64,000 nt of DNA, taken from assembly GCF_988243305.1 (NCBI RefSeq), contig NZ_OZ547136.1; one strand, 5' to 3'. The notes under the pieces were generated by a model. It worked only from the letters and a program-made list of their open reading frames with translations. It was not told where the DNA came from and searched no databases. Below are positions 14,638-63,999 of this stretch, piece by piece (within the stretch, counting starts at the first letter, position 1; the number at the start of each line of letters is the position of its first letter). The position numbers and the translations under genes were made by a program.

Positions 14638-14649
14638 CACGCTACCGCC
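14638..14649 (-). promoter_or_regulatory. ops element (GGCGGTAGCGTG) within a JUMPStart sequence in the wza leader; RfaH-dependent antitermination site
   Basis: Plus strand 14638-14649 reads cacgctaccgcc, whose reverse complement is GGCGGTAGCGTG, the 12-nt ops consensus. It lies about 180 nt upstream of the wza start on the coding strand. Confidence 0.75.
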
Positions 14650-15117
14650 CCTGGCTTTTTAGCTACCAATACACTGATTTAGCTTAATTTTTAAAACCCT
14701 CTCAACATACAGTCGTTGATGAGAAAGGGTTATTGCGGAAATTAACTTCCGAATATAAGGTGACATTATGGTAATTGAATATTGGCTCTCCAATAATGCA
14801 GGAGGAAGTGTTACAGCTAACGGAATAGCAGGCAAGGTAACAATTCGGCAATTGGCTATTTTTAAGAATTATATTAAGTGTCATTCAACATGGTTTTTAG
14901 GAGTTTCTTTAGGTTGACAATATTTAATATAGTGTCTCCACATGCGATATTTCTTAAATAATGTTTTATTATTACCACTTTTAATTCAGGGATAATGTGA
15001 GGTTATAAACCTCAAATAATATGAGATAAATAGTGCTGCAACATTGCATTTTTGCCCCGATTTATCCATGATCGAATTGTGACATTTGTCATACAACGAA
15101 TAGGTTTTGTACTTACT

Positions 15118-16701
15118 ATGGAATGGATTGCCGATCCGTCTATCTGGGCCGGGTTAATCACGCTGATTGTGATCGAACTGGTCCTCGGCATTGATAACCT
15201 GGTCTTTATTGCCATCCTCGCCGAAAAACTACCGCCGAAGCAGCGCGACCGCGCACGGGTTACCGGGCTGCTGCTGGCGATGTTAATGCGCCTGTTACTG
15301 CTGGCGTCAATCTCCTGGCTGGTCACCCTGACACAACCGCTATTCAGCTTTCGCTCGTTTACCTTTAGCGCCCGCGACTTAATCATGCTGTTTGGTGGTT
15401 TCTTCCTGCTGTTCAAAGCCACGATGGAGCTGAACGAACGGCTGGAAGGGAAAGACAGCAATAACCCCACGCAACGCAAAGGTGCGAAGTTCTGGGGGGT
15501 GGTGACACAAATTGTGGTACTGGACGCCATCTTCTCACTCGACTCGGTGATTACCGCCGTCGGGATGGTCGACCATTTACTGGTCATGATGGCCGCCGTC
15601 GTTATCGCTATTAGCCTGATGTTGATGGCCAGCAAGCCGTTAACGCAATTTGTTAACAGTCACCCGACGATCGTTATTCTCTGCTTAAGCTTCCTGTTGA
15701 TGATTGGCTTTAGCCTGGTGGCAGAAGGTTTCGGCTTCGTCATTCCGAAAGGCTACCTGTACGCTGCTATTGGTTTCTCGGTGATGATCGAGGCGCTCAA
15801 TCAGTTGGCTATCTTTAACCGGCGACGTTTTCTTTCCGCTAACCAGACACTGCGCCAGCGGACTACCGAAGCGGTAATGCGCCTGCTTAGCGGGCAAAAA
15901 GAAGATGCGGAACTGGACGCCGAAACCGCGTCCATGCTGGTGGATCATGGTAACCAGCAGATCTTTAATCCGCAGGAACGGCGGATGATTGAGCGGGTAC
16001 TTAATCTTAACCAGCGTACTGTCAGCAGCATTATGACGTCGCGCCACGATATTGAGCATATCGATCTCAACGCGCCGGAAGAAGAAATCCGCCAGTTGCT
16101 GGAGCGAAATCAGCATACGCGGTTGGTGGTTACCGACGGTGATGACGCAGAAGATTTGCTCGGTGTTGTTCACGTTATCGACCTGCTACAACAGTCACTG
16201 CGCGGCGAACCGCTCAACCTGCGGGTGTTGATTCGCCAGCCGCTGGTGTTCCCGGAAACCTTGCCGTTGTTACCTGCTTTGGAGCAGTTCCGTAATGCCC
16301 GCACACACTTTGCTTTTGTGGTGGATGAGTTTGGCTCGGTGGAAGGGATTGTGACATTAAGTGACGTCACGGAAACTATTGCCGGTAACTTGCCGAACGA
16401 AGTGGAAGAGATCGACGCCCGCCATGATATTCAGAAAAACGCCGACGGTTCCTGGACGGCGAATGGTCATATGCCACTGGAAGATCTGGTGCAATATGTG
16501 CCGCTACCGCTGGATGAGAAACGCGAATATCACACCATTGCCGGGCTGCTGATGGAATATTTGCAGCGTATTCCAAAACCTGGCGAAGAAGTTCAGGTGG
16601 GGGATTATTTGCTTAAAACGTTGCAGGTGGAAAGCCATCGCGTGCAGAAGGTGCAGATTATACCGCTGCGTAAGGATGGCGAGATGGAGTACGAGGTGTG
16701 A
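15118..16701 (+). CDS. yegH: Inner-membrane protein YegH (TerC-family integral membrane domain fused to CBS pair and CorC/HlyC-type transporter-associated domain)
   Basis: ORF track gives 549 aa; I start at [34 protein letters not shown] (527 aa, ATG 15118). Hydrophobic N-terminal half and soluble C-terminal half. Confidence 0.85.
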
Positions 16702-16934
16702 TGGTATCGCCATTTTACCCGATGCTGCGTAACGCCTTATAACTTCAGCAATGAAGCGATGTCTGTGGTACATGGACATCACAGCGGGGGTGTGGGTCCG
16801 GGTTGCCAGGGTGGTGGAGATTGAGCCACCCTGGCACGTTCACCGGCTTGAGCGTTCCATAGTAGCGAGGAACATCAAGTGAACGGAACAGCCTTCGATC
16901 TTACATATTCAGAATATAATGGTGCCGCCACGAA

Positions 16935-16972
16935 CGCCTGATGCGACGCTTTACGCGTCTTATCAGGCCTAC
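16935..16972. repeat. REP element downstream of asmA
   Basis: gcctgatgcgacgctttacgcgtcttatcaggcctaca palindrome. Confidence 0.7.
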
Positions 16973-16992
16973 AGGACAGGTCACCTGGTAAA

Positions 16993-18846
16993 CTACATCT
17001 TCTCCAGCAACTTCTTCACATCTTTGCCATTGCGGGAATCTTTATTCCGCTCGGCCCAGTCATTCAGGCGACGTTTCGCTTCGTCCTGTAGATGTTTGCG
17101 CAGCAGCTGGTCCACTTGCAGGCTGTAATTGAGTTGCTGCCAGTTGCCATAAACCCGCAGCGGTACTGGCGTTTCTTTGAGGAAATCAATCAGTTTGCTT
17201 TCTCCGTTCCATCCACCCACGACCCGAATATCAAACTGGGTGTCGCAGGTTTGCTCCGCCAGATTCAACGTACCAGCCCCGGAAAGCGCCAGCACAGGCG
17301 ATTGACCTTGCATGTCGTTTAACGTCACGACGCCATCCTTCAACGTCAAATAGGTGGTAAAGCGGTCAAGACGCGTCACGTTATCGAAGTTTTCAGCGGC
17401 CTTCACATCACCACCATTACGTTCTACCGCTTGCTGAATCATCTGCTGGAAGTTCATCCCTTCCATGCGTGTGTCGGTCATTTCGACATGTGCCTGTCCT
17501 TGCCAGTTGTGGCGGAATGCGTCGGCATCTATGTCAGCACCGGAGAAATCACCAGCCAGTGACATCTTTCCGGTCAACGAAATCGGATAGTTAAACGCCT
17601 TCAGAATGGTGCCTATCTCAACGTTTTCCAGCCGTGGCTGGAAGTTTATCCGCGGATTTATTGATGTCGCGTCCAGCGTGCCCGGCAGTGAAACCTGTCC
17701 ACCGTTAAGCTTGCCCTGCAGTTGAGTAATTTCCAGCAAACCCGACTTGTTGGTCATTTGCGTGGCAACATCTGTAAAATTCATTCCGCGCCAGCGCACG
17801 TTACTGGCCTGCAACAAAATATCAGCCGTAAAGCCTTGCAGTCCCTGATAGGCCGGTTCATCAATACGCGAAGAAATGACCGGGCGCGGCAACGTTGATT
17901 GGCTCTGCCCCTGCTGCGCGGCACCGTTTTCACCGTTCGCTGTTTCATTAAGCGGGATGAGGTTGTCAAGATTCAGTTGCGGGAATTGCAGTCTCAGCTG
18001 CCATTCCGGTTTCTCTGTCAACGTGACCTGTGCTTGCCCGCTCAGCGTACTGTCATTGGCGGTCAAACTAATTTGGTTAAATGAAAGGCGTTTATGTGAC
18101 TCCTGCCACTGGGCCTGGAAACTCCCCTGCCCCTGAATACCTTGTTTTGGTAAATCTGCACCCTGCAACTGCCAGTTAATTTGTTCAATAGCCGCCGTTA
18201 AATCATGCGGATAATCAGAAGCATCTACCGTACCGTTAAGGGATATCGTGAGATCGCGCTGATCGCGATTAACCCGCCCGGAGAACTCAAATGAGCCACG
18301 ATGTTGGGGATCTTGTTCCATTTGCAGACGGATATTGCGGATTGTCACCTGCTCGTCATCTTCATGCTGGAACACCAGCACGCTGTCCGCCACCTTAAGA
18401 CTGGATATATCAAACGACCATCCGCGATCGTCTGACAGATCCGGCAAGGTATTGTCGCGCGGTGCAACCGGAGCGTCTTCACTGCGCACCGCTTCCGTCT
18501 GCGGCGTCAGTTGGATCACTGCCCCTTTTAGCATCACCTGCTTAACGCTCAGTTGATGACTCAGTAGTGGTAAAAGCGCCACGTCCAGACGCATGTTGTC
18601 GGCGCGAACCAGTGGCTGGCTCGCGCCCTGGGCGGTGAGAGACATTCGCCCGGAGAGGATACTAAGCTGCGGCCAGACGTGCCAACGCAGTGGCCCGTCG
18701 AGCTGCAATTGATAACCGCTACGTGCAGCAACTTGCTTGACCATATAGTCGCGGAAATCATTCGGATTCACCAGCAACACTAACGCAGATAACCCGGCCA
18801 CCAGCACGACCAGGAGTATCATCAGCGTCGTCAGAAATCGTCTCAT
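16993..18846 (-). CDS. asmA: AsmA, outer-membrane protein assembly / AsmA-like lipid transport family protein
   Basis: 617-aa ORF MRRFLTTLMILLVVLVAGLSALVLLVNPNDFRDYM (N-terminal TM anchor); located upstream of dcd-udk as in E. coli. Confidence 0.88.
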   Translation of the reverse strand: MRRFLTTLMILLVVLVAGLSALVLLVNPNDFRDYMVKQVAARSGYQLQLDGPLRWHVWPQLSILSGRMSLTAQGASQPLVRADNMRLDVALLPLLSHQLSVKQVMLKGAVIQLTPQTEAVRSEDAPVAPRDNTLPDLSDDRGWSFDISSLKVADSVLVFQHEDDEQVTIRNIRLQMEQDPQHRGSFEFSGRVNRDQRDLTISLNGTVDASDYPHDLTAAIEQINWQLQGADLPKQGIQGQGSFQAQWQESHKRLSFNQISLTANDSTLSGQAQVTLTEKPEWQLRLQFPQLNLDNLIPLNETANGENGAAQQGQSQSTLPRPVISSRIDEPAYQGLQGFTADILLQASNVRWRGMNFTDVATQMTNKSGLLEITQLQGKLNGGQVSLPGTLDATSINPRINFQPRLENVEIGTILKAFNYPISLTGKMSLAGDFSGADIDADAFRHNWQGQAHVEMTDTRMEGMNFQQMIQQAVERNGGDVKAAENFDNVTRLDRFTTYLTLKDGVVTLNDMQGQSPVLALSGAGTLNLAEQTCDTQFDIRVVGGWNGESKLIDFLKETPVPLRVYGNWQQLNYSLQVDQLLRKHLQDEAKRRLNDWAERNKDSRNGKDVKKLLEKM

Positions 18847-20499: not shown

Positions 20500-23400
20500 A
20501 TGAGCAAACAATCACAGCATGTATTAATTGCCCTGCCCCACCCGCTGCTTCACCTGGTCAGTTTAGGTTTAGTCTCGTTTATCTTTACCCTTTTCTCGCT
20601 TGAGCTTTCGCAGTTTGGCACCCAACTCGCCCCACTGTGGTTCCCGACGTCCATCATGATGGTGGCGTTTTATCGCCATGCCGGGCGTATGTGGCCGGGG
20701 ATTGCGCTGAGCTGCTCACTGGGAAATATCGCCGCATCCATCCTGCTTTTTTCCACCAGCTCGCTGAACATGACCTGGACGACCATCAATATTGTTGAAG
20801 CCGTGGTCGGGGCAGTGCTACTGCGTAAATTGCTGCCGTGGTATAACCCATTGCAAAATCTGGCTGACTGGCTGCGTCTGGCACTCGGCAGCGCCATTGT
20901 TCCGCCTCTGTTGGGGGGTGTTCTGGTTATCCTGCTGACGCCCGGAGACGATCCTCTCAGGGCATTTTTGATATGGGTACTGTCAGAATCCATCGGCGCA
21001 CTGGCACTGGTGCCACTGGGATTGTTATTTAAACCACACTATCTGCTGCGCCATCGCAACCCAAGGTTGCTTTTTGAGTCGCTGCTCACGTTAGCCATCA
21101 CACTGACGTTAAGCTGGCTTTCGATGCTGTATCTGCCGTGGCCTTTTACTTTCATTATTGTGCTGTTGATGTGGAGCGCCGTGCGCCTGCCACGAATGGA
21201 AGCCTTTTTGATCTTCCTTACCACGGTGATGATGGTGTCACTGATGATGGCCGCGGATCCCTCCCTGCTTGCTACGCCGCGTACATACCTGATGAGCCAT
21301 ATGCCGTGGCTACCGTTTTTGCTGATCCTGCTGCCCGCCAACATCATGACCATGGTGATGTATGCCTTTCGTGCGGAACGCAAACACATTTCCGAAAGCG
21401 AAACCCGCTTTCGGAACGCGATGGAATATTCCGCTATCGGTATGGCGTTAGTGGGCACCGAGGGACAATGGCTGCAATCCAACAAAGCACTCTGCCAGTT
21501 TCTCGGTTACAGTCAGGAAGAGCTGCGCGGACTCACCTTTCAGCAACTGACCTGGCCGGAGGATCTCAATAAAGATCTGCAACAGGTTGAAAAGCTGATC
21601 AGCGGTGAAATAAACACCTATTCAATGGAAAAACGCTACTACAACCGCAATGGCGATGTTGTCTGGGCGTTGCTTGCCGTCTCACTGGTGCGCCACACGG
21701 ATGGCACGCCGCTCTATTTTATCGCTCAGATTGAAGACATTAACGAGCTAAAACGCACCGAACAGGTGAATCAGCAACTGATGGAGCGCATCACGCTGGC
21801 TAACGAAGCGGGCGGGATTGGCATCTGGGAGTGGGAGCTTAAGCCGAATATTTTTAGCTGGGATAAGCGGATGTTCGAGCTGTATGAAATTCCTCCGCAT
21901 ATCAAACCGAACTGGCAGGTGTGGTACGAGTGCGTGCTGCCGGAAGATCGCCAGCATGCCGAAAAAGTGATTCGTGATTCGTTGCAATCACGCTCTCCCT
22001 TTAAACTGGAATTTCGCATTACCGTGAAAGACGGCATTCGCCATATCCGCGCCCTCGCTAACCGGGTACTGAATAAAGAAGGCGAAGTCGAACGCCTGCT
22101 CGGCATTAATATGGATATGACCGAGGTAAAACAGCTTAACGAGGCATTGTTTCAGGAAAAAGAGCGCCTGCACATTACGCTGGATTCCATCGGCGAAGCC
22201 GTGGTCTGTATTGATATGGCAATGAAAATTACCTTTATGAATCCGGTGGCGGAGAAGATGAGCGGCTGGACGCAGGAAGAAGCGTTAGGTGTTCCACTCC
22301 TGACGGTGTTGCATATTACTTTTGGCGACAACGGACCATTAATGGAGAACATTTACAGTGCCGACACCTCACGTTCCGCGATTGAACAAGATGTGGTGTT
22401 GCACTGCCGAAGCGGCGGCAGCTACGACGTGCATTACAGTATTACGCCGTTAAGTACTCTGGACGGCAGCAATATTGGTTCGGTTCTGGTGATTCAGGAC
22501 GTCACCGAATCGCGCAAAATGCTGCGCCAGCTGAGCTACAGCGCCTCCCATGATGCACTGACGCATCTCGCCAATCGCGCCAGTTTTGAGAAGCAACTAC
22601 GCATCCTGCTGCAAACGGTAAACAGTACACATCAGCGACATGCACTGGTGTTTATCGATCTTGATCGCTTTAAAGCGGTGAATGACAGCGCCGGGCACGC
22701 CGCTGGCGACGCTTTACTGCGCGAACTGGCGTCATTGATGCTGAGTATGCTGCGCTCCAGCGACGTGCTGGCGCGACTCGGTGGCGATGAATTTGGTCTG
22801 CTGCTGCCAGATTGTAATGTCGAAAGTGCGCGTTTTATCGCTACACGCATTATCAGCGCCGTGAATGACTATCACTTTATCTGGGAAGGACGTGTACATC
22901 GGGTAGGTGCCAGTGCCGGGATTACCTTGATTGATGACAACAATCATCAGGCGGCTGAAGTGATGTCGCAGGCTGATATCGCCTGTTATGCCTCCAAAAA
23001 TGGTGGCCGGGGCCGGGTGACGATTTACGAACCGCAGCAAGCTGCCGCACATAGCGAACGGGCGGCGATGTCGCTTGATGAACAGTGGCGGATGATTAAA
23101 GAGAATCAGTTGATGATGATCGCCCACGGTGTCGCTTCGCCGCGGATCCCGCAAGCGCGTAATTTGTGGCTGATTTCACTTAAGCTCTGGAGTTGCGAAG
23201 GCGAGATTATTGATGAACAAACATTTCGTCGTAGCTTCAGCGATCCGGCACTTAGCCATGCTCTTGACCGACGGGTATTCCACGATTTTTTCCAGCAGGC
23301 CGCCAAAGCGGTTGCCAGTAAAGGTATAAGCATCGCCCTCCCGCTTTCCGTTGCCGGTTTGAGTAGCGCCACGCTGGTGAATGAACTAATTGAGCAGCTG

Positions 23401-28819: not shown

Positions 28820-28846
28820 CCAGCCATTATATTGATTGCTTAAACT

Positions 28847-28874
28847 GGCGGTTGAACTGTTGTCTTCAACCGCC
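28847..28874. terminator. Perfect 10-bp stem hairpin between convergent yegJ and pphC (candidate bidirectional terminator)
   Basis: ggcggttgaa-ctgttgtc-ttcaaccgcc read directly; lies in the 64-bp gap between the two stop codons. No strong U-tract on either side. Confidence 0.5.
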
Positions 28875-28883
28875 ATGCGATGT

Positions 28884-30301: not shown

Positions 30302-30480
30302 AAGAAATCCTTTCTTAGAGAATTATTGAGGTCCGGTATCATACCGATTGCAATAATGAAATAAGAGCAAACGAAGAAACTTTCAGAATTAGGCCCGGCG
30401 GCGCAGAAAATTTTGCTATTCGCCTCGCAAGAACGGAGAGCCGTCGATTGACACTAAGGGCGGAGTGACATAATTTCAGG

Positions 30481-30628
30481 AGTGAGGGTTAGGGAGAGGT
30501 TTCTCCCTCCCCCTGGTGTTCTTAGTAAGCCTGGAAGCTAATCACTAAGAGTATCTCCAGTATGATGACGTGCTTCATCATAACCCTTTCCTTATTAAAA
30601 GCCCTCTTCTCCGGGAGAGGGTTTCCCG
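30481..30628 (+). ncRNA. sibA: Sib-family antisense sRNA (antitoxin), copy 1; boundaries approximate
   Basis: Plus-strand region fully antisense to the ibs ORF, preceded by a CATAAT -10-like hexamer (30469-30474) and ending at a GC-rich hairpin plus T-rich tract (gccctcttctccgggagagggtttcccgttt, ~30601-30628). Confidence 0.5.
30522..30581 (-). CDS. ibsA: Ibs-family type I toxin peptide, copy 1 (19 aa: MMKHVIILEILLVISFQAY)
   Basis: Minus-strand ATGATGAAG...TAA ORF read by hand; matches the Ibs hydrophobic peptide pattern MMK-h(15)-AY. Confidence 0.6.
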   Translation of the reverse strand: MMKHVIILEILLVISFQAY

Positions 30629-30815
30629 TTTCAGCGTCCCGCTGAAATCGTCGGCTTACCTCCTTTCGCCCTGAATGCAGTCTATCGCTAACGCGTGAAC
30701 AAAATAGTTTCCTCTGTGATTATTGCGTAACGACTCGCAAAGAATATTTGCTGGCAGGATCGCAGACTGAAAAGCCTGCAGATTGACAATCTTATCGTGA
30801 AGGCATAATTTCAGG

Positions 30816-30958
30816 AGTGAGGGTAGAGCGGGGTTTCCCCCGCCCTGGTAGTCTTAGTAAGCCGGGAAGCTTATGACTAAGAGCACCACGATGATGATCC
30901 ACTTCATCATGACCCTTTCCTTATTTAAGGCCCCTTCCTCGGGAGGGGCTTTCCCGTT
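30816..30958 (+). ncRNA. Sib-family antisense sRNA, copy 2; boundaries approximate
   Basis: Same arrangement as copy 1: CATAAT at 30804-30809, hairpin ggccccttcctcgggaggggcttt followed by a T-rich tract ending ~30958. Confidence 0.5.
30854..30910 (-). CDS. Ibs-family type I toxin peptide, copy 2 (18 aa: MMKWIIIVVLLVISFPAY)
   Basis: Minus-strand ORF read by hand inside repeat unit 2. Confidence 0.6.
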   Translation of the reverse strand: MMKWIIIVVLLVISFPAY

Positions 30959-31143
30959 TCAGCGTCCCGCTGAAATCGTCGGCTTACCTCCTTTCGCCCT
31001 GAATGCAGTCTATCGCTAACGCGTGAACAAAATAGTTTCCTCTGTGATTATTGCGTAACGACTCGCAAAGAATATTTGCTGGCAGGATCGCAGACTGCAA
31101 AGCCTGCAGATTGACAATCTTATCGTGAAGGCATAATTTCAGG

Positions 31144-31284
31144 AGTGAGGGTAGAGCGGGGTTTCCCCCGCCCTGGTAGTCTTAGTATGCTGGGTAGCTA
31201 ATCACTAAGAGCACCACGATGATGAGTAGCTTCATCATGACCCTTTCCTTATTTATGGCCCCTTCCTCGGGAGGGGCTTTCCCG
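31144..31284 (+). ncRNA. sibB: Sib-family antisense sRNA, copy 3; boundaries approximate
   Basis: Same arrangement: CATAAT at 31132-31137, hairpin and T-tract ending ~31284. Confidence 0.5.
31182..31238 (-). CDS. ibsB: Ibs-family type I toxin peptide, copy 3 (18 aa: MMKLLIIVVLLVISYPAY)
   Basis: Minus-strand ORF read by hand inside repeat unit 3; closest to IbsB as I recall it. Confidence 0.6.
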   Translation of the reverse strand: MMKLLIIVVLLVISYPAY

Positions 31285-31516: not shown

Positions 31517-32764
31517 ATGAAAGGCAGTTATAAATCCCGTTGGGTAATCGTAATCGTGGTGGTTATCGCCGCCATCGCCGCATTCTGGTTCTGGCAAGGC
31601 CGCAATGACTCCCGGAGTGCAGCCCCAGGGGCGACGAAACAAGCGCAGCAATCGCCAGCGGGTGGTCGCCGTGGTATGCGTTCCGGCCCATTAGCCCCGG
31701 TTCAGGCGGCGACCGCCGTAGAACAGGCAGTTCCGCGTTACCTCACCGGGCTTGGCACCATTACCGCCGCTAATACTGTTACGGTGCGCAGCCGCGTGGA
31801 CGGTCAACTGATGGCGTTACATTTCCAGGAAGGCCAGCAGGTCAAAGCAGGCGATTTACTGGCAGAAATTGACCCAAGCCAGTTCAAAGTTGCATTAGCA
31901 CAAGCCCAGGGCCAACTGGCAAAAGATAAAGCCACGCTTGCCAACGCCCGCCGTGACCTGGCGCGTTATCAGCAACTGGCAAAAACCAATCTCGTATCTC
32001 GTCAGGAACTGGATGCCCAACAAGCGCTGGTCAGTGAAACCGAAGGCACCATTAAGGCTGATGAAGCAAGCGTCGCCAGCGCGCAGCTGCAACTCGACTG
32101 GAGCCGCATCACCGCACCAGTCGATGGTCGCGTTGGTCTCAAGCAGGTTGATGTTGGTAACCAAATCTCCAGTGGTGATACCACCGGGATTGTGGTGATC
32201 ACCCAGACGCATCCTATCGATTTGCTCTTTACCCTGCCGGAAAGCGATATCGCTACCGTAGTACAGGCGCAAAAAGCCGGAAAACCGCTGGTTGTTGAAG
32301 CCTGGGATCGCACCAACTCGAAGAAATTAAGTGAAGGCACGCTGTTAAGTCTCGATAACCAAATCGATGCCACTACCGGTACGATTAAAGTGAAAGCACG
32401 CTTTAATAATCAGGATGATGCGCTGTTTCCCAATCAGTTTGTTAACGCGCGTATGTTAGTCGACACCGAACAAAACGCCGTGGTGATCCCCACCGCCGCT
32501 CTGCAAATGGGCAACGAAGGCCATTTTGTCTGGGTGCTGAATAGCGAAAACAAGGTCAGCAAACATCTGGTGACGCCGGGCATTCAGGACAGTCAGAAAG
32601 TGGTGATCCGCGCAGGTATTTCTGCGGGCGACCGCGTAGTGACGGATGGCATTGATCGCCTGACCGAAGGGGCGAAAGTGGAAGTGGTGGAAGCCCAGAG
32701 CGCCACCACTTCGGAAGAGAAAGCCACCAGCCGCGAATACGCGAAAAAAGGAGCACGCTCCTGA
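31517..32764 (+). CDS. mdtA: Multidrug efflux RND membrane fusion (periplasmic adaptor) protein MdtA
   Basis: ORF track gives 455 aa; I start at [26 protein letters not shown] (415 aa, ATG 31517), preceded by an RBS. Confidence 0.9.
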
Positions 32765-44520: not shown

Positions 44521-44604
44521 TTAATTTCGATTATTTTTCCCGGATGGAAAATTCTTAGAAACCGATCACATACAGCTGCATTTATTAAGGTTATCATCCG
44601 TTTC

Positions 44605-44691
44605 GCTGAAAAACATAACCCATAAAATGCTAGCTGTACCAGGAACCACCTCCTTAGCCTGTGTAATCTCCCTTACACGGGCTTATTTTTT
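44605..44691 (+). ncRNA. cyaR: CyaR (RyeE) Hfq-dependent, CRP-activated sRNA
   Basis: GCTGAAAAACATAACCCATAAAATGCTAGCTGTACCAGGAACCACCTCCTTAGCCTGTGTAATCTCCCTTACACGGGCTTATTTTTT read on the plus strand matches my recollection of E. coli CyaR, including the terminator hairpin and U-tract. Confidence 0.8.
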
Positions 44692-44849
44692 ATGCATAGG
44701 CCCTATCCCTGGTCACCGTCTTCCATTGACCACATCGATAGAATCTCCCTTCATAGCACGATGCCTTTCACGTAACGGCATCGTGCTCGCACTAGTTCCG
44801 GCTAAGCACAACCAGAACGCGCATGTTTGACGCTTACCAAAAAATATTC

Positions 44850-45167: not shown

Positions 45168-45581
45168 CTTACCTTCCCCCATTAAATACCAACGACACGC
45201 TCTGGTGTTAAAATATAATAATGGCATGATTATTATAATTGAATAGGATTATAATAAATGTTCTGTACAACATTTCCTACATAAGTAGGAATTACAAACA
45301 TGAAGCCCTGCCCAGGTATCCCCATGAGGGCTTTAATATATTTAGAATAAGATAGTGAAGATGCCACTGTTTAGTTGAATATTAGGTATATGCTCTTTTT
45401 TGAAATTTACCGGTGGCTACCGTTAACATTCACTGTCCCCATTGCAAGCTCCTGGTGGTAACCACTGAATCCTCCATACTTGAACTGACTTTTTATCCTC
45501 CGACTTTCATCCTGTTCTGACTCCACCTTTTCTTTTCTGCTCTACACTATCTACAGACCAATCATAAAGGCACATACGATC

Positions 45582-60831: not shown

Positions 60832-60975
60832 AGTTTGCTCCTGCCATAACGTGAAGAAGCAATGACCTGGTGGTCCGTGACTTCCCTACGCTGGCATTAT
60901 CCAGATCAGGTGATACGGGTATTTCTCAGCCTTCACGCAGAAGGGCACCCCGAGTCGTTTGATTGCGATGATAAA
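60832..60975 (-). promoter_or_regulatory. TPP (thi-box) riboswitch in the thiM 5' leader
   Basis: Reverse complement of ~60878-60955 reads GACTCGGGGTGCCCTTCTGCGTGAAGGCTGAGAAATACCCGTATCACCTGATCTGGATAATGCCAGCGTAGGGAAGTC, containing the conserved CTGAGA and thi-box core and lying directly upstream of thiM. Confidence 0.9.
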
Positions 60976-62670: not shown

Positions 62671-63999
62671 TAAGGAGATCCCCTCATAATTTCCCCAAAG
62701 CGTAACCATGTGTGAATAAATTTTGAGCTAGTAGGGTTGCAGCCACGAGTAAGTCTTCCCTTGTTATTGTGTAGCCAGAATGCCGCAAAACTTCCATGCC
62801 TAAGCGAACTGTTGAGAGTACGTTTCGATTTCTGACTGTGTTAGCCTGGAAGTGCTTGTCCCAACCTTGTTTCTGAGCATGAACGCCCGCAAGCCAACAT
62901 GTTAGTTGAAGCATCAGGGCGATTAGCAGCATGATATCAAAACGCTCTGAGCTGCTCGTTCGGCTATGGCGTAGGCCTAGTCCGTAGGCAGGACTTTTCA
63001 AGTCTCGGAAGGTTTCTTCAATCTGCATTCGCTTCGAATAGATATTAACAAGTTGTTTGGGTGTTCGAATTTCAACAGGTAAGTTAGTTGCTAGAACCCA
63101 TGGCTCCTTTGCCGACGCTGAGTAGATTTTAGGTGACGGGTGGTGACAATGAGTCCGTGTCGAGCGCTGATTTTTTCGGCCTTTAGAGCGAGATTTATAC
63201 AATAGAATTTGGCATGAGATTGGATTGCTTTTAGTCAGCCTCTTATAGCCTAAAGTCTTTGAGTGACTAGATGACATATCATGTAAGTTGCTGATAGGTT
63301 TCCAGTTTTCCGCTCCTAGGTCTGCATATTGTACTTTTCCTCTTACTCGACTTAACCAGTACCAACCCAGCTTCTCAACGGATTTATACCATGGCACTTT
63401 AAAGCCAGCATCACTGACAATGAGCGGTGTGGTGTTACTCGGTAGAATGCTCGCAAGGTCGGCTAGAAATTGGTCATGAGCTTTCTTTGAACATTGCTCT
63501 GAAAGCGGGAACGCTTTCTCATAAAGAGTAACAGAACGACCGTGTAGTGCGACTGAAGCTCGCAATACCATAAGTCGTTTTTGCTCACGAATATCAGACC
63601 AGTCAACAAGTACAATGGGCATCGTATTGCCCGAACAGATAAAGCTAGCATGCCAACGGTATACAGCGAGTCGCTCTTTGTGGAGGTGACGATTACCTAA
63701 CAATCGGTCGATTCGTTTGATGTTATGTTTTGTTCTCGCTTTGGTTGGCAGGTTACGGCCAAGTTCGGTAAGAGTGAGAGTTTTACAGTCAAGTAATGCG
63801 TGGCAAGCCAACGTTAAGCTGTTGAGTCGTTTTAAGTGTAATTCGGGGCAGAATTGGTAAAGAGAGTCGTGTAAAATATCGAGTTCGCACATCTTGTTGT
63901 CTGATTATTGATTTTTGGCGAAACCATTTGATCATATGACAAGATGTGTATCTACCTTAACTTAATGATTTTTACCAAAATCATTAGGGGATTCATCAG
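62671..63999 (-). mobile_element. IS10 insertion sequence (IS4 family), about 1329 bp
   Basis: Right terminus at 63999 matches the IS10 outside end (reverse complement CTGATGAATCCCCTAATGATTTTGGTAAAAATCATTAAG). Left end contains GAGATCCCCTCATAATTTCCCCAAAGCGTAACC, the IS10 inside end. Left junction is placed to within a few nt. Confidence 0.88.
62684..63892 (-). CDS. IS10 transposase
   Basis: 402-aa ORF MCELDILHDSLYQFCPELHLKRLNSLTLACHALLDCKTLTLTELGRNLPTKARTKHNIKRIDRLLGNRHLHKERLAVYRWH..., full length and apparently intact. Confidence 0.93.
   Translation of the reverse strand: MCELDILHDSLYQFCPELHLKRLNSLTLACHALLDCKTLTLTELGRNLPTKARTKHNIKRIDRLLGNRHLHKERLAVYRWHASFICSGNTMPIVLVDWSDIREQKRLMVLRASVALHGRSVTLYEKAFPLSEQCSKKAHDQFLADLASILPSNTTPLIVSDAGFKVPWYKSVEKLGWYWLSRVRGKVQYADLGAENWKPISNLHDMSSSHSKTLGYKRLTKSNPISCQILLYKSRSKGRKNQRSTRTHCHHPSPKIYSASAKEPWVLATNLPVEIRTPKQLVNIYSKRMQIEETFRDLKSPAYGLGLRHSRTSSSERFDIMLLIALMLQLTCWLAGVHAQKQGWDKHFQANTVRNRNVLSTVRLGMEVLRHSGYTITREDLLVAATLLAQNLFTHGYALGKL

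Follow-up and report, generated by a model that had tools for sequence, protein, structure and literature searches.

The U-less hairpin between yegH and asmA of Escherichia coli belongs to an internally deleted TRIP1/RRS-family repeat and probably blocks exonucleases at the RNA level

The 291-bp spacer between yegH (plus strand) and the convergent gene asmA (minus strand, ending at 16993) holds a strong hairpin that carries no U-tract, which raises the question of where this structure comes from and what it does. We analysed it in the whole stretch of 64,000 nucleotides to which it belongs, called the window here. A sequence-only reading had described a perfect 10-bp stem without U-tract 3' of yegH, and direct inspection confirmed it: the core arms GCCAGGGTGG (16805-14) and CCACCCTGGC (16826-35) pair perfectly, and an eleventh Watson-Crick pair, T16804-A16836, extends the stem. 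The stem stood as described and the loop boundary did not, the last G of the loop having been assigned to the 3' arm; the loop TGGAGATTGAG (16815-25) is 11 nt long. The core of this hairpin, termed H3, begins 103 nt beyond the yegH stop codon, which ends at 16701, and a REP unit (16933-16969, a sub-threshold naRNA4/REP match) follows about 100 nt 3' of it. Our reading, to which we assign a probability of roughly 75%, is that H3 forms the central, conserved stem-loop in the 3' domain of a repeat of the TRIP1/RRS family, and that this repeat is present as a remnant whose stem-loop likely blocks exonucleases at the RNA level.

The RNA folding that the earlier reading had proposed as a check gave a stable structure (-23.7 kcal/mol for the plus strand and -21.2 for the minus strand; z about -5.3 to -5.8), with none of 200 shuffles equally good. 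Folded as DNA, H3 reached -13.4 (plus) and -13.1 kcal/mol (minus). Counting perfect hairpins with a stem of at least 10 bp and a loop of 3-15 nt, we found seven in the 64-kb window against 0.87 ± 0.88 in dinucleotide shuffles; a lone hairpin of this size in the window is suggestive and weakly significant at best. Further hairpins of this kind lie at 21390-21416, 28846-28875, 32681-32712, 44755-44787 and 45230-45257.

Neither strand has a T-run next to the stem, and scanning 16500-17200 for terminators returned no terminator-like site. Of the two parts of an intrinsic (Rho-independent) terminator, a GC-rich stem-loop and a U-tract, H3 has only the first, and the earlier judgement that it is no obvious intrinsic terminator was right. 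So was the statement that it is not a REP: the REP consensus did not match at H3, the only REP-like match of the spacer being at 16897-16969, away from the hairpin. An Rfam scan of the yegH-asmA spacer likewise returned nothing at H3, just REP-like sub-threshold matches. An open reading frame that overlaps H3 (16751-16882, 43 aa) was rejected, as it stops after 18 codons in the long allele of the spacer described below and its start is deleted in MG1655.

Family membership and history of the spacer

What the earlier reading had overlooked is that H3 is one module of the dispersed TRIP1/RRS-family repeats, of which the window contains an internally deleted remnant. A covariance model of the 3' domain (R1; H3 plus stem P5, built from 62 diverse copies) found a single match in the 64 kb, which covered the full length of the model (1-102) with 83.6 bits and an E value of 5.9e-20. 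In MG1655 the same model scored the yegH-asmA copy at 88.3 bits, RRS-dusC at 75.5 and RRS-lysO at 72.8. Several sequence alignments also supported the homology of the window element to TRIP1/RRS, and the 5' domain of the full-length yegH-asmA allele is about 91% identical to TRIP1a. The window copy itself is not a complete 'double-Y' element, which spans about 220-270 bp including a 5' hairpin domain. The features of the locus are collected in Table 1.

Table 1. Features of the repeat remnant in the yegH-asmA spacer, in window coordinates
Feature	Position	Strand	Description and basis
Hairpin H3	16804..16836	both	11-bp perfect stem, 16804-16814 with 16826-16836; 11-nt loop
3' domain, complete	16794..16895	+	'A-type' subfamily with ACGTTCAC...GTGAACGGAA stem; R1 match
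Stem P5	16837..16885	+	CGTTCAC (16837-43) pairs with GTGAACG (16879-85); encloses variable arm with inner GTTCC/GGAAC stem; folding, covariation
Probable 5' leader (TTCAGCAATGAAG...GGGGGTGTGGGT)	16744..16797	+	Travels with the element in the inverted copy L044; boundary approximate
3' tail (GAACAGCCTTCGATCTTACATATTC)	16886..16910	+	Similarity to other copies stops at about 16910; boundary approximate
Deletion junction, CCGG	16798..16801		Alignment to the long allele L003; 159 bp lost, including the whole 5' TwoAYGGAY-like hairpin domain
Expected RNA 3' end, yegH-sense	16841	+	Transferred from MG1655 2139607
Expected RNA 3' end, asmA-sense	16800	-	Transferred from MG1655 2139566

Other copies of the repeat occur in E. 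coli at lysO-aqpZ, near putP and at proX-ygaY, and at further sites in Citrobacter and Klebsiella. The copies at lysO-aqpZ and putP identify the dispersed repeat as TRIP1 (Rudd 1999, as cited by Li et al. 2024). The TRIP1 loci given by Li et al. (2024) are aqpZ-ybjE, putP-ycdN, yohI-yohG, alx-sstT and copA-ybaP; TRIP1a is RRS-lysO and TRIP1c is RRS-dusC, the 'replication risk sequences' of Pham et al. (2023, 2024). Neither yegH-asmA nor proX-ygaY is one of these five loci, and the copies there are thus unlisted members of the family. The proX-ygaY spacer of E. coli CNREC_004-43 (L006, 1330-1600) carries a full-length copy of the yegH type, which is absent from the lists of the TRIP1/RRS papers. 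In 130 E. coli genomes the sole match to the 3' domain of the window was of the 60-80% identity kind, as is the proX-ygaY copy. A phage origin of the element was rejected, the phage matches covering nothing but query positions 395-436, where the REP lies, as was a plasmid origin: matches in the plasmid collection were mostly megabase-size or chromosome-like records, and the neighbours that were fetched proved to be ordinary chromosomal genes.

The hairpin is maintained across this family. Scanning species-representative genomes with the 5'-domain pattern yielded at least 120 loci, nearly all from Enterobacteriaceae, with at least 5-7 repeat loci in each of several genomes among the matches listed; 97 distinct full-length copies were aligned. 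In a model-fitted alignment of 137 copies 96.8% of the cells paired, compared with 81.4% in shuffles, and the covariation score was 0.417 against 0.140, a value that none of 500 shuffles matched and that dropped to 0.10 or less when the partners were slid by 1-3 columns. Both-sided (compensatory) changes were found at 10 of the 11 H3 pairs among about 135 Enterobacteriaceae copies. This alignment is fitted to the structure; a structure-blind MAFFT alignment run beside it gave 91.2% against 82.7% paired, a score of 0.252 against 0.111 and compensation at 9 of the 11 pairs. The stem appears as AGGGTGG/CCACCCT, AGGGCGG/CCGCCCT, AAGGGCG/CGCCCTT, AAGGGTA/TACCCTT, GGGGGCGG/CCGCCCCC and AAGAGGG/CCCTCTT. 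In stem P5 98% of the cells paired, with UA<->CG and AU<->CG/UA exchanges between subfamilies. The conservation of H3 is one among paralogous copies, not orthologous ones. The loop motif GGCG is kept across the family and is replaced by GGAG in the window and in MG1655, which looks like decay rather than maintained function.

In other Enterobacteriaceae, 36 of 98 loci among the matches listed held two diverged copies head to head, about 500 bp apart, with the 3' domains facing outward and the 5' domains separated by about 60-90 nt of AT-rich sequence. In one such pair (L021, 904-1494) the copies are about 71% identical; others are found at L022, L042, L043, L054, L056, L057, L060, L085, L089, L096 and L097, among further loci. 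Five loci (L031, L065, L105, L108 and L111) carry an extra nested module with a third hairpin tipped by AYGGAY. At two loci of Enterobacter sp. MGH 24 (L061 and L063) the similarity to the repeat breaks off within the element at unrelated sequence, which may be an insertion sequence.

The yegH-asmA spacer of E. coli exists in at least four versions. The long form (451 bp; strain M9682, L003) holds a full-length repeat. The window form lacks, relative to it, 159 bp between two CCGG repeats, and the MG1655 form lacks 178 bp between two TACCCGAT repeats. In the O157 form a RelE/ParE-HTH toxin-antitoxin pair stands in place of everything; in an O157:H7 strain (L004, 677-1295) two genes, for a RelE/ParE-family toxin and an HTH antitoxin, take up the whole spacer, which behaves as an exchangeable cassette site. 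Among 5,426 complete E. coli genomes the 3' domain was present at 90% identity or more in about 4,333, the matching 5' domain, which marks the long allele, in 1,428, and the upstream segment missing from MG1655 in 1,887. By subtraction of these BLAST counts, which makes the shares approximate, about 26% of genomes carry the long allele, about 8% the window type, about 45% the MG1655 type and about 20% no element.

Conservation of the palindrome in other Enterobacteriaceae, which the sequence-only reading had proposed to look for, was absent from this position: the orthologous spacers of Salmonella, K. aerogenes and K. pneumoniae (85, 49 and 637 bp, the last made up of REP arrays) contained no copy, and the element is therefore an acquisition of the Escherichia lineage. 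The two CCGG repeats lie at the base of the long 5' hairpin domain, and the 159 bp between them were most likely lost by slippage across the palindrome. The K. pneumoniae spacer (L136, 2290-2760) contains about four tandem repeats of about 120 bp, each with a REP-like palindrome.

In E. coli SCPM-O-B-8794 (L044, 8560-9160) the full element lies between yegH and asmA in inverted orientation, with a REP on either side. The 5' arm of its hairpin reads GGGGGGGGG, which gives a weaker stem and a higher G4Hunter score, 2.1; this might also reflect a sequencing error in a homopolymer. We looked for a clean insertion site or a target-site duplication at alx-sstT (TRIP1d) and at yegH-asmA and could define none, because at both loci the alternative alleles replace the whole spacer; transposition of the element is putative. 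At alx-sstT E. coli has three alternative alleles (L140, L139, L141), one consisting of TRIP1d with an AT-rich leader of about 100 nt and two of unrelated palindromes of the CCCTCTCCC/GGGAGAGGG type. The products of alx and yegH are both TerC-family proteins, and about 100 nt beyond the stop codon of either gene lies a copy of the repeat family, which may be coincidence.

DNA-level comparison with replication risk sequences

As described by Pham et al. (2023, 2024), RRS are GC-rich 222-bp elements that block DNA polymerases at a 'G4' sequence, GGGGGTGCAGGGGGCGGCGG, and that, where the G4-bearing strand serves as lagging-strand template, trigger post-replication gaps on the lagging strand. H3 is the positional homolog of precisely this stretch, at which Pol I, II and IV stop, and the homologous sequence in the window is GGGTTGCCAGGGTGGTGG. 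The remnant could on these grounds be a weak RRS-like replication-risk site: on a single-stranded template the hairpin, alone or together with a two-tetrad G4, would halt synthesis of the lagging strand, and a transient gap would result. RRS-lysO and RRS-dusC share with the window copy H3, stem P5 and the ...CGNAA tail, one covariance model matching all three, and the hairpin is predicted on both DNA strands.

The window copy nevertheless differs from both in its 3'-domain subfamily (ACGTTCAC as opposed to GCGCTCC), in its shorter G-runs and in the deletion of the 5' domain. Its G4Hunter score (20-nt window) was 1.2, and the medians were 2.3 in the RRS/TRIP1a-e subfamily (n=24) and 1.15 in the larger yegH-type subfamily (n=109). 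The window copy thus has no strong G4-forming sequence of the kind found in functional RRS and, since the medians differ by subfamily, it is the hairpin that is kept family-wide and not strong G4 propensity. H3 is also the weaker hairpin as DNA, its -13.4 kcal/mol falling 4.6 short of the -18.0 of RRS-lysO.

The orientation is reversed as well. The G-rich strand is the plus strand at yegH-asmA (2.1396 Mb) and the minus strand at RRS-dusC on the same replichore; it is here the leading-strand template, in contrast to functional RRS, where it is the lagging-strand template. The GC skew of the plus strand of the window was -0.021. Across the family, local GC skew, a noisy measure applied to imperfect subfamily labels, gave no bias in replication orientation (21 versus 16 in the larger group). 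Pham et al. described only two prominent RecA/SSB peaks, lysO and dusC, and found inverted RRS to be without gaps in vivo; they report no gaps at the yegH-asmA copy, which is closer to the terminus than RRS-dusC by about 90 kb. In vitro, with the C-strand of RRS as lagging-strand template, about 66% of encounters reportedly led to a gap (Kusi-Appauh et al. 2026, preprint), so that reversed orientation alone leaves room for a DNA-level effect.

A further argument against such a site is that about 20% of E. coli genomes are without this 3' domain and that an O157:H7 strain carries a toxin-antitoxin pair instead. Given the weak G4, the weaker hairpin, the lost 5' domain and the opposite orientation, the yegH-asmA remnant is probably not a significant replication-gap site, and we regard even weak RRS-like action as unlikely. 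Internal loss in this family has a parallel: TRIP1b, 3' of putP in K-12, lost about 125 bp internally and kept its ends (Rudd 1999, as cited by Li et al. 2024), resembling the yegH-asmA deletions (159 bp in the window, 178 bp in MG1655) at another locus and in another subfamily.

RNA 3' ends on both strands of the hairpin

The evidence for a role at the RNA level comes from K-12. The Term-seq data of Adams et al. (2021; supplementary file 1) for MG1655 include two curated 'orphan' 3' ends, at 2139607 (+), seen in all three growth conditions with 2740, 2875 and 4207 reads, and at 2139566 (-), seen in two conditions with 42363 and 31838 reads. By model alignment the MG1655 hairpin, identical in sequence, occupies 2139570-2139602, which places the ends 5 nt past the stem on the plus strand and 4 nt past it on the minus strand, as expected of a protective stem-loop. 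The suggestion in the sequence-only reading of an RNase-related structure or a transcript 3' end was borne out by these positions; its other suggestion, a separate small transcript, found no support, as the ends fit read-through from yegH and asmA.

Adams et al. (2021) also reported a Rho termination region on the minus strand with a peak at 2139476 (Rho score 7.69, p 1e-18), which for asmA-sense transcripts is downstream of the hairpin, and minus-strand read-through at yegH-asmA in MG1655 rose 8-fold with bicyclomycin. Their tables contain no Rho region on the plus strand at 21394xx-21398xx. On the minus strand of the window, 21 C and 9 G fall within the 50 nt that directly follow the stem. 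This arrangement resembles the protective 3' stem-loops of Dar & Sorek (2018): Rho-dependent transcripts at steady state end right after stable stem-loops that lack a U-tract and shield them from PNPase and RNase II, with rut sites just downstream. H3 shares with these the stability, the missing U-tract, the 3' end a few nucleotides downstream and the Rho region with C-rich sequence that follows. It differs in that a single palindrome acts on both strands, for two convergent genes, and comes from a repeat remnant, and in that the exonuclease block is predicted.

Since the spacer has no intrinsic terminator, transcripts of yegH (plus) and asmA (minus) would run through H3. Termination would take place farther on, for the minus strand by Rho, as has been shown in K-12, and 3'-5' exonucleases would trim the transcripts back until the stable stem-loop stops them. 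The result would be the defined 3' ends 4-5 nt past the stem that are seen on both strands in K-12. REP elements are mRNA stabilisers of the same sort as protective 3' stem-loops. We infer that the K-12 ends would also form in the window strain through such trimming and that the yegH and asmA mRNAs would be stabilised; the window and MG1655 carry different deletions, so the flanks upstream of the hairpin differ. The role of H3 at this locus is most likely that of a by-product at the RNA level.

On the plus strand the Term-seq end is covered by a modest number of reads (about 3-4 thousand), and the minus strand alone showed Rho dependence. Ends 4-5 nt past the stem could come from hairpin-dependent pausing or termination instead of trimming, and H3 might then be a non-canonical bidirectional U-less terminator that itself stops RNA polymerase arriving from yegH and asmA. 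The occurrence of such ends on both strands between convergent genes and the very stable stem would suit this proposal. It sits badly with the lack of a U-tract on either side and with the 8-fold increase under bicyclomycin, which indicates Rho-dependent termination on the minus strand; moreover, stable U-less 3' stem-loops are the signature that Dar & Sorek (2018) describe for trimmed Rho-dependent transcripts. We consider direct termination by H3 quite improbable and favour a stem-loop that blocks exonucleases.

TwoAYGGAY resemblance and the wider family

The 5' domain of full-length copies has a layout like that of the TwoAYGGAY RNA motif (RF01731; Weinberg et al. 2010), with a long interrupted stem and two hairpins bearing AYGGAY-like loops. 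H3 might accordingly be part of a functional structured non-coding RNA of this kind, transcribed from the element itself. The long allele matched the Rfam model with 31.5 bits and other copies with 28-30, all below the gathering threshold of 43. Loop motifs are kept on one strand (AYGGAY twice, GGCG and AGAGAAGC), and wobble counts, made as a pointer to the functional strand, gave G-U pairs a slight plus-strand excess over A-C pairs within the 5' domain but not within the hairpin. AGGGAY, however, occupies the second loop, TwoAYGGAY has no counterpart of the 3' domain, and the domain that resembles it is deleted in the window, where the Rfam scan found no TwoAYGGAY match. In addition, no promoter-like site was found for the element, copies occur in either orientation relative to neighbouring genes, and the lists of Adams et al. 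(2021) contain no Term-seq ends at RRS-lysO or RRS-dusC. An RNA of this kind is very unlikely here. A chance palindrome without history or role has a negligible probability: a shuffled 64-kb window is expected to yield about 0.9 perfect 10-bp hairpins, and it is the homology (E 6e-20) and the covariation, with compensation at 10 of 11 pairs across about 135 copies, rather than the hairpin count that refute it, together with the in vivo 3' ends mapped at the stem.

For annotation, the preferred reading explains a U-less hairpin in a convergent spacer as a truncated TRIP1/RRS repeat that defines RNA 3' ends on both strands. For work on RRS it adds diverged E. coli members at loci outside the lists of Li et al. 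(2024) and Pham et al. (2024), namely yegH-asmA, occupied in about 80% of complete E. coli genomes, and proX-ygaY, occupied in some of them, and at least 5-7 loci per genome, often as head-to-head pairs, in other Enterobacteriaceae. The finding at yegH-asmA is ordinary in itself; its modest wider interest is that the RRS 'G4' shares sequence with the 5' arm of a hairpin that compensatory changes maintain across the family, and that a larger subfamily keeps the hairpin with a weak G4. This overlap, the weak G4 of the larger subfamily and the unlisted loci prompt one to ask whether it is the fold or the G4 that blocks polymerases. A speculative and rather doubtful extension is that the two 'essential' E. 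coli RRS elements are specialised members of a large, multi-copy Enterobacteriaceae family under structural constraint, which conserves a covarying hairpin within a two-domain fold and not the G-quadruplex, its diverged members, among them the yegH-asmA remnant, being weak gap or topology sites. E. coli would then contain a graded series of RRS-like sites, not just two, and the diverged members would act through hairpins on the strand that is the lagging-strand template.

Elsewhere in the window, three tandem SIB RNA (Sib antitoxin) copies scored above the Rfam gathering threshold (30448-30596, 30783-30925 and 31111-31253, all plus strand); K-12 has two copies at this locus, sibA and sibB. Matches above the gathering score were also obtained for an algC RNA motif (15-64, minus), the REP-derived family naRNA4 (151-221, plus), JUMPstart (14638-14676, minus), CyaR (44603-44688, plus) and a TPP riboswitch (60866-60962, minus). 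At the right edge of the window, a match to RNA-OUT, the IS10 antisense RNA (63885-63954, plus), is followed by a perfect hairpin (63963-63986), which suggests a copy of IS10/Tn10 there.
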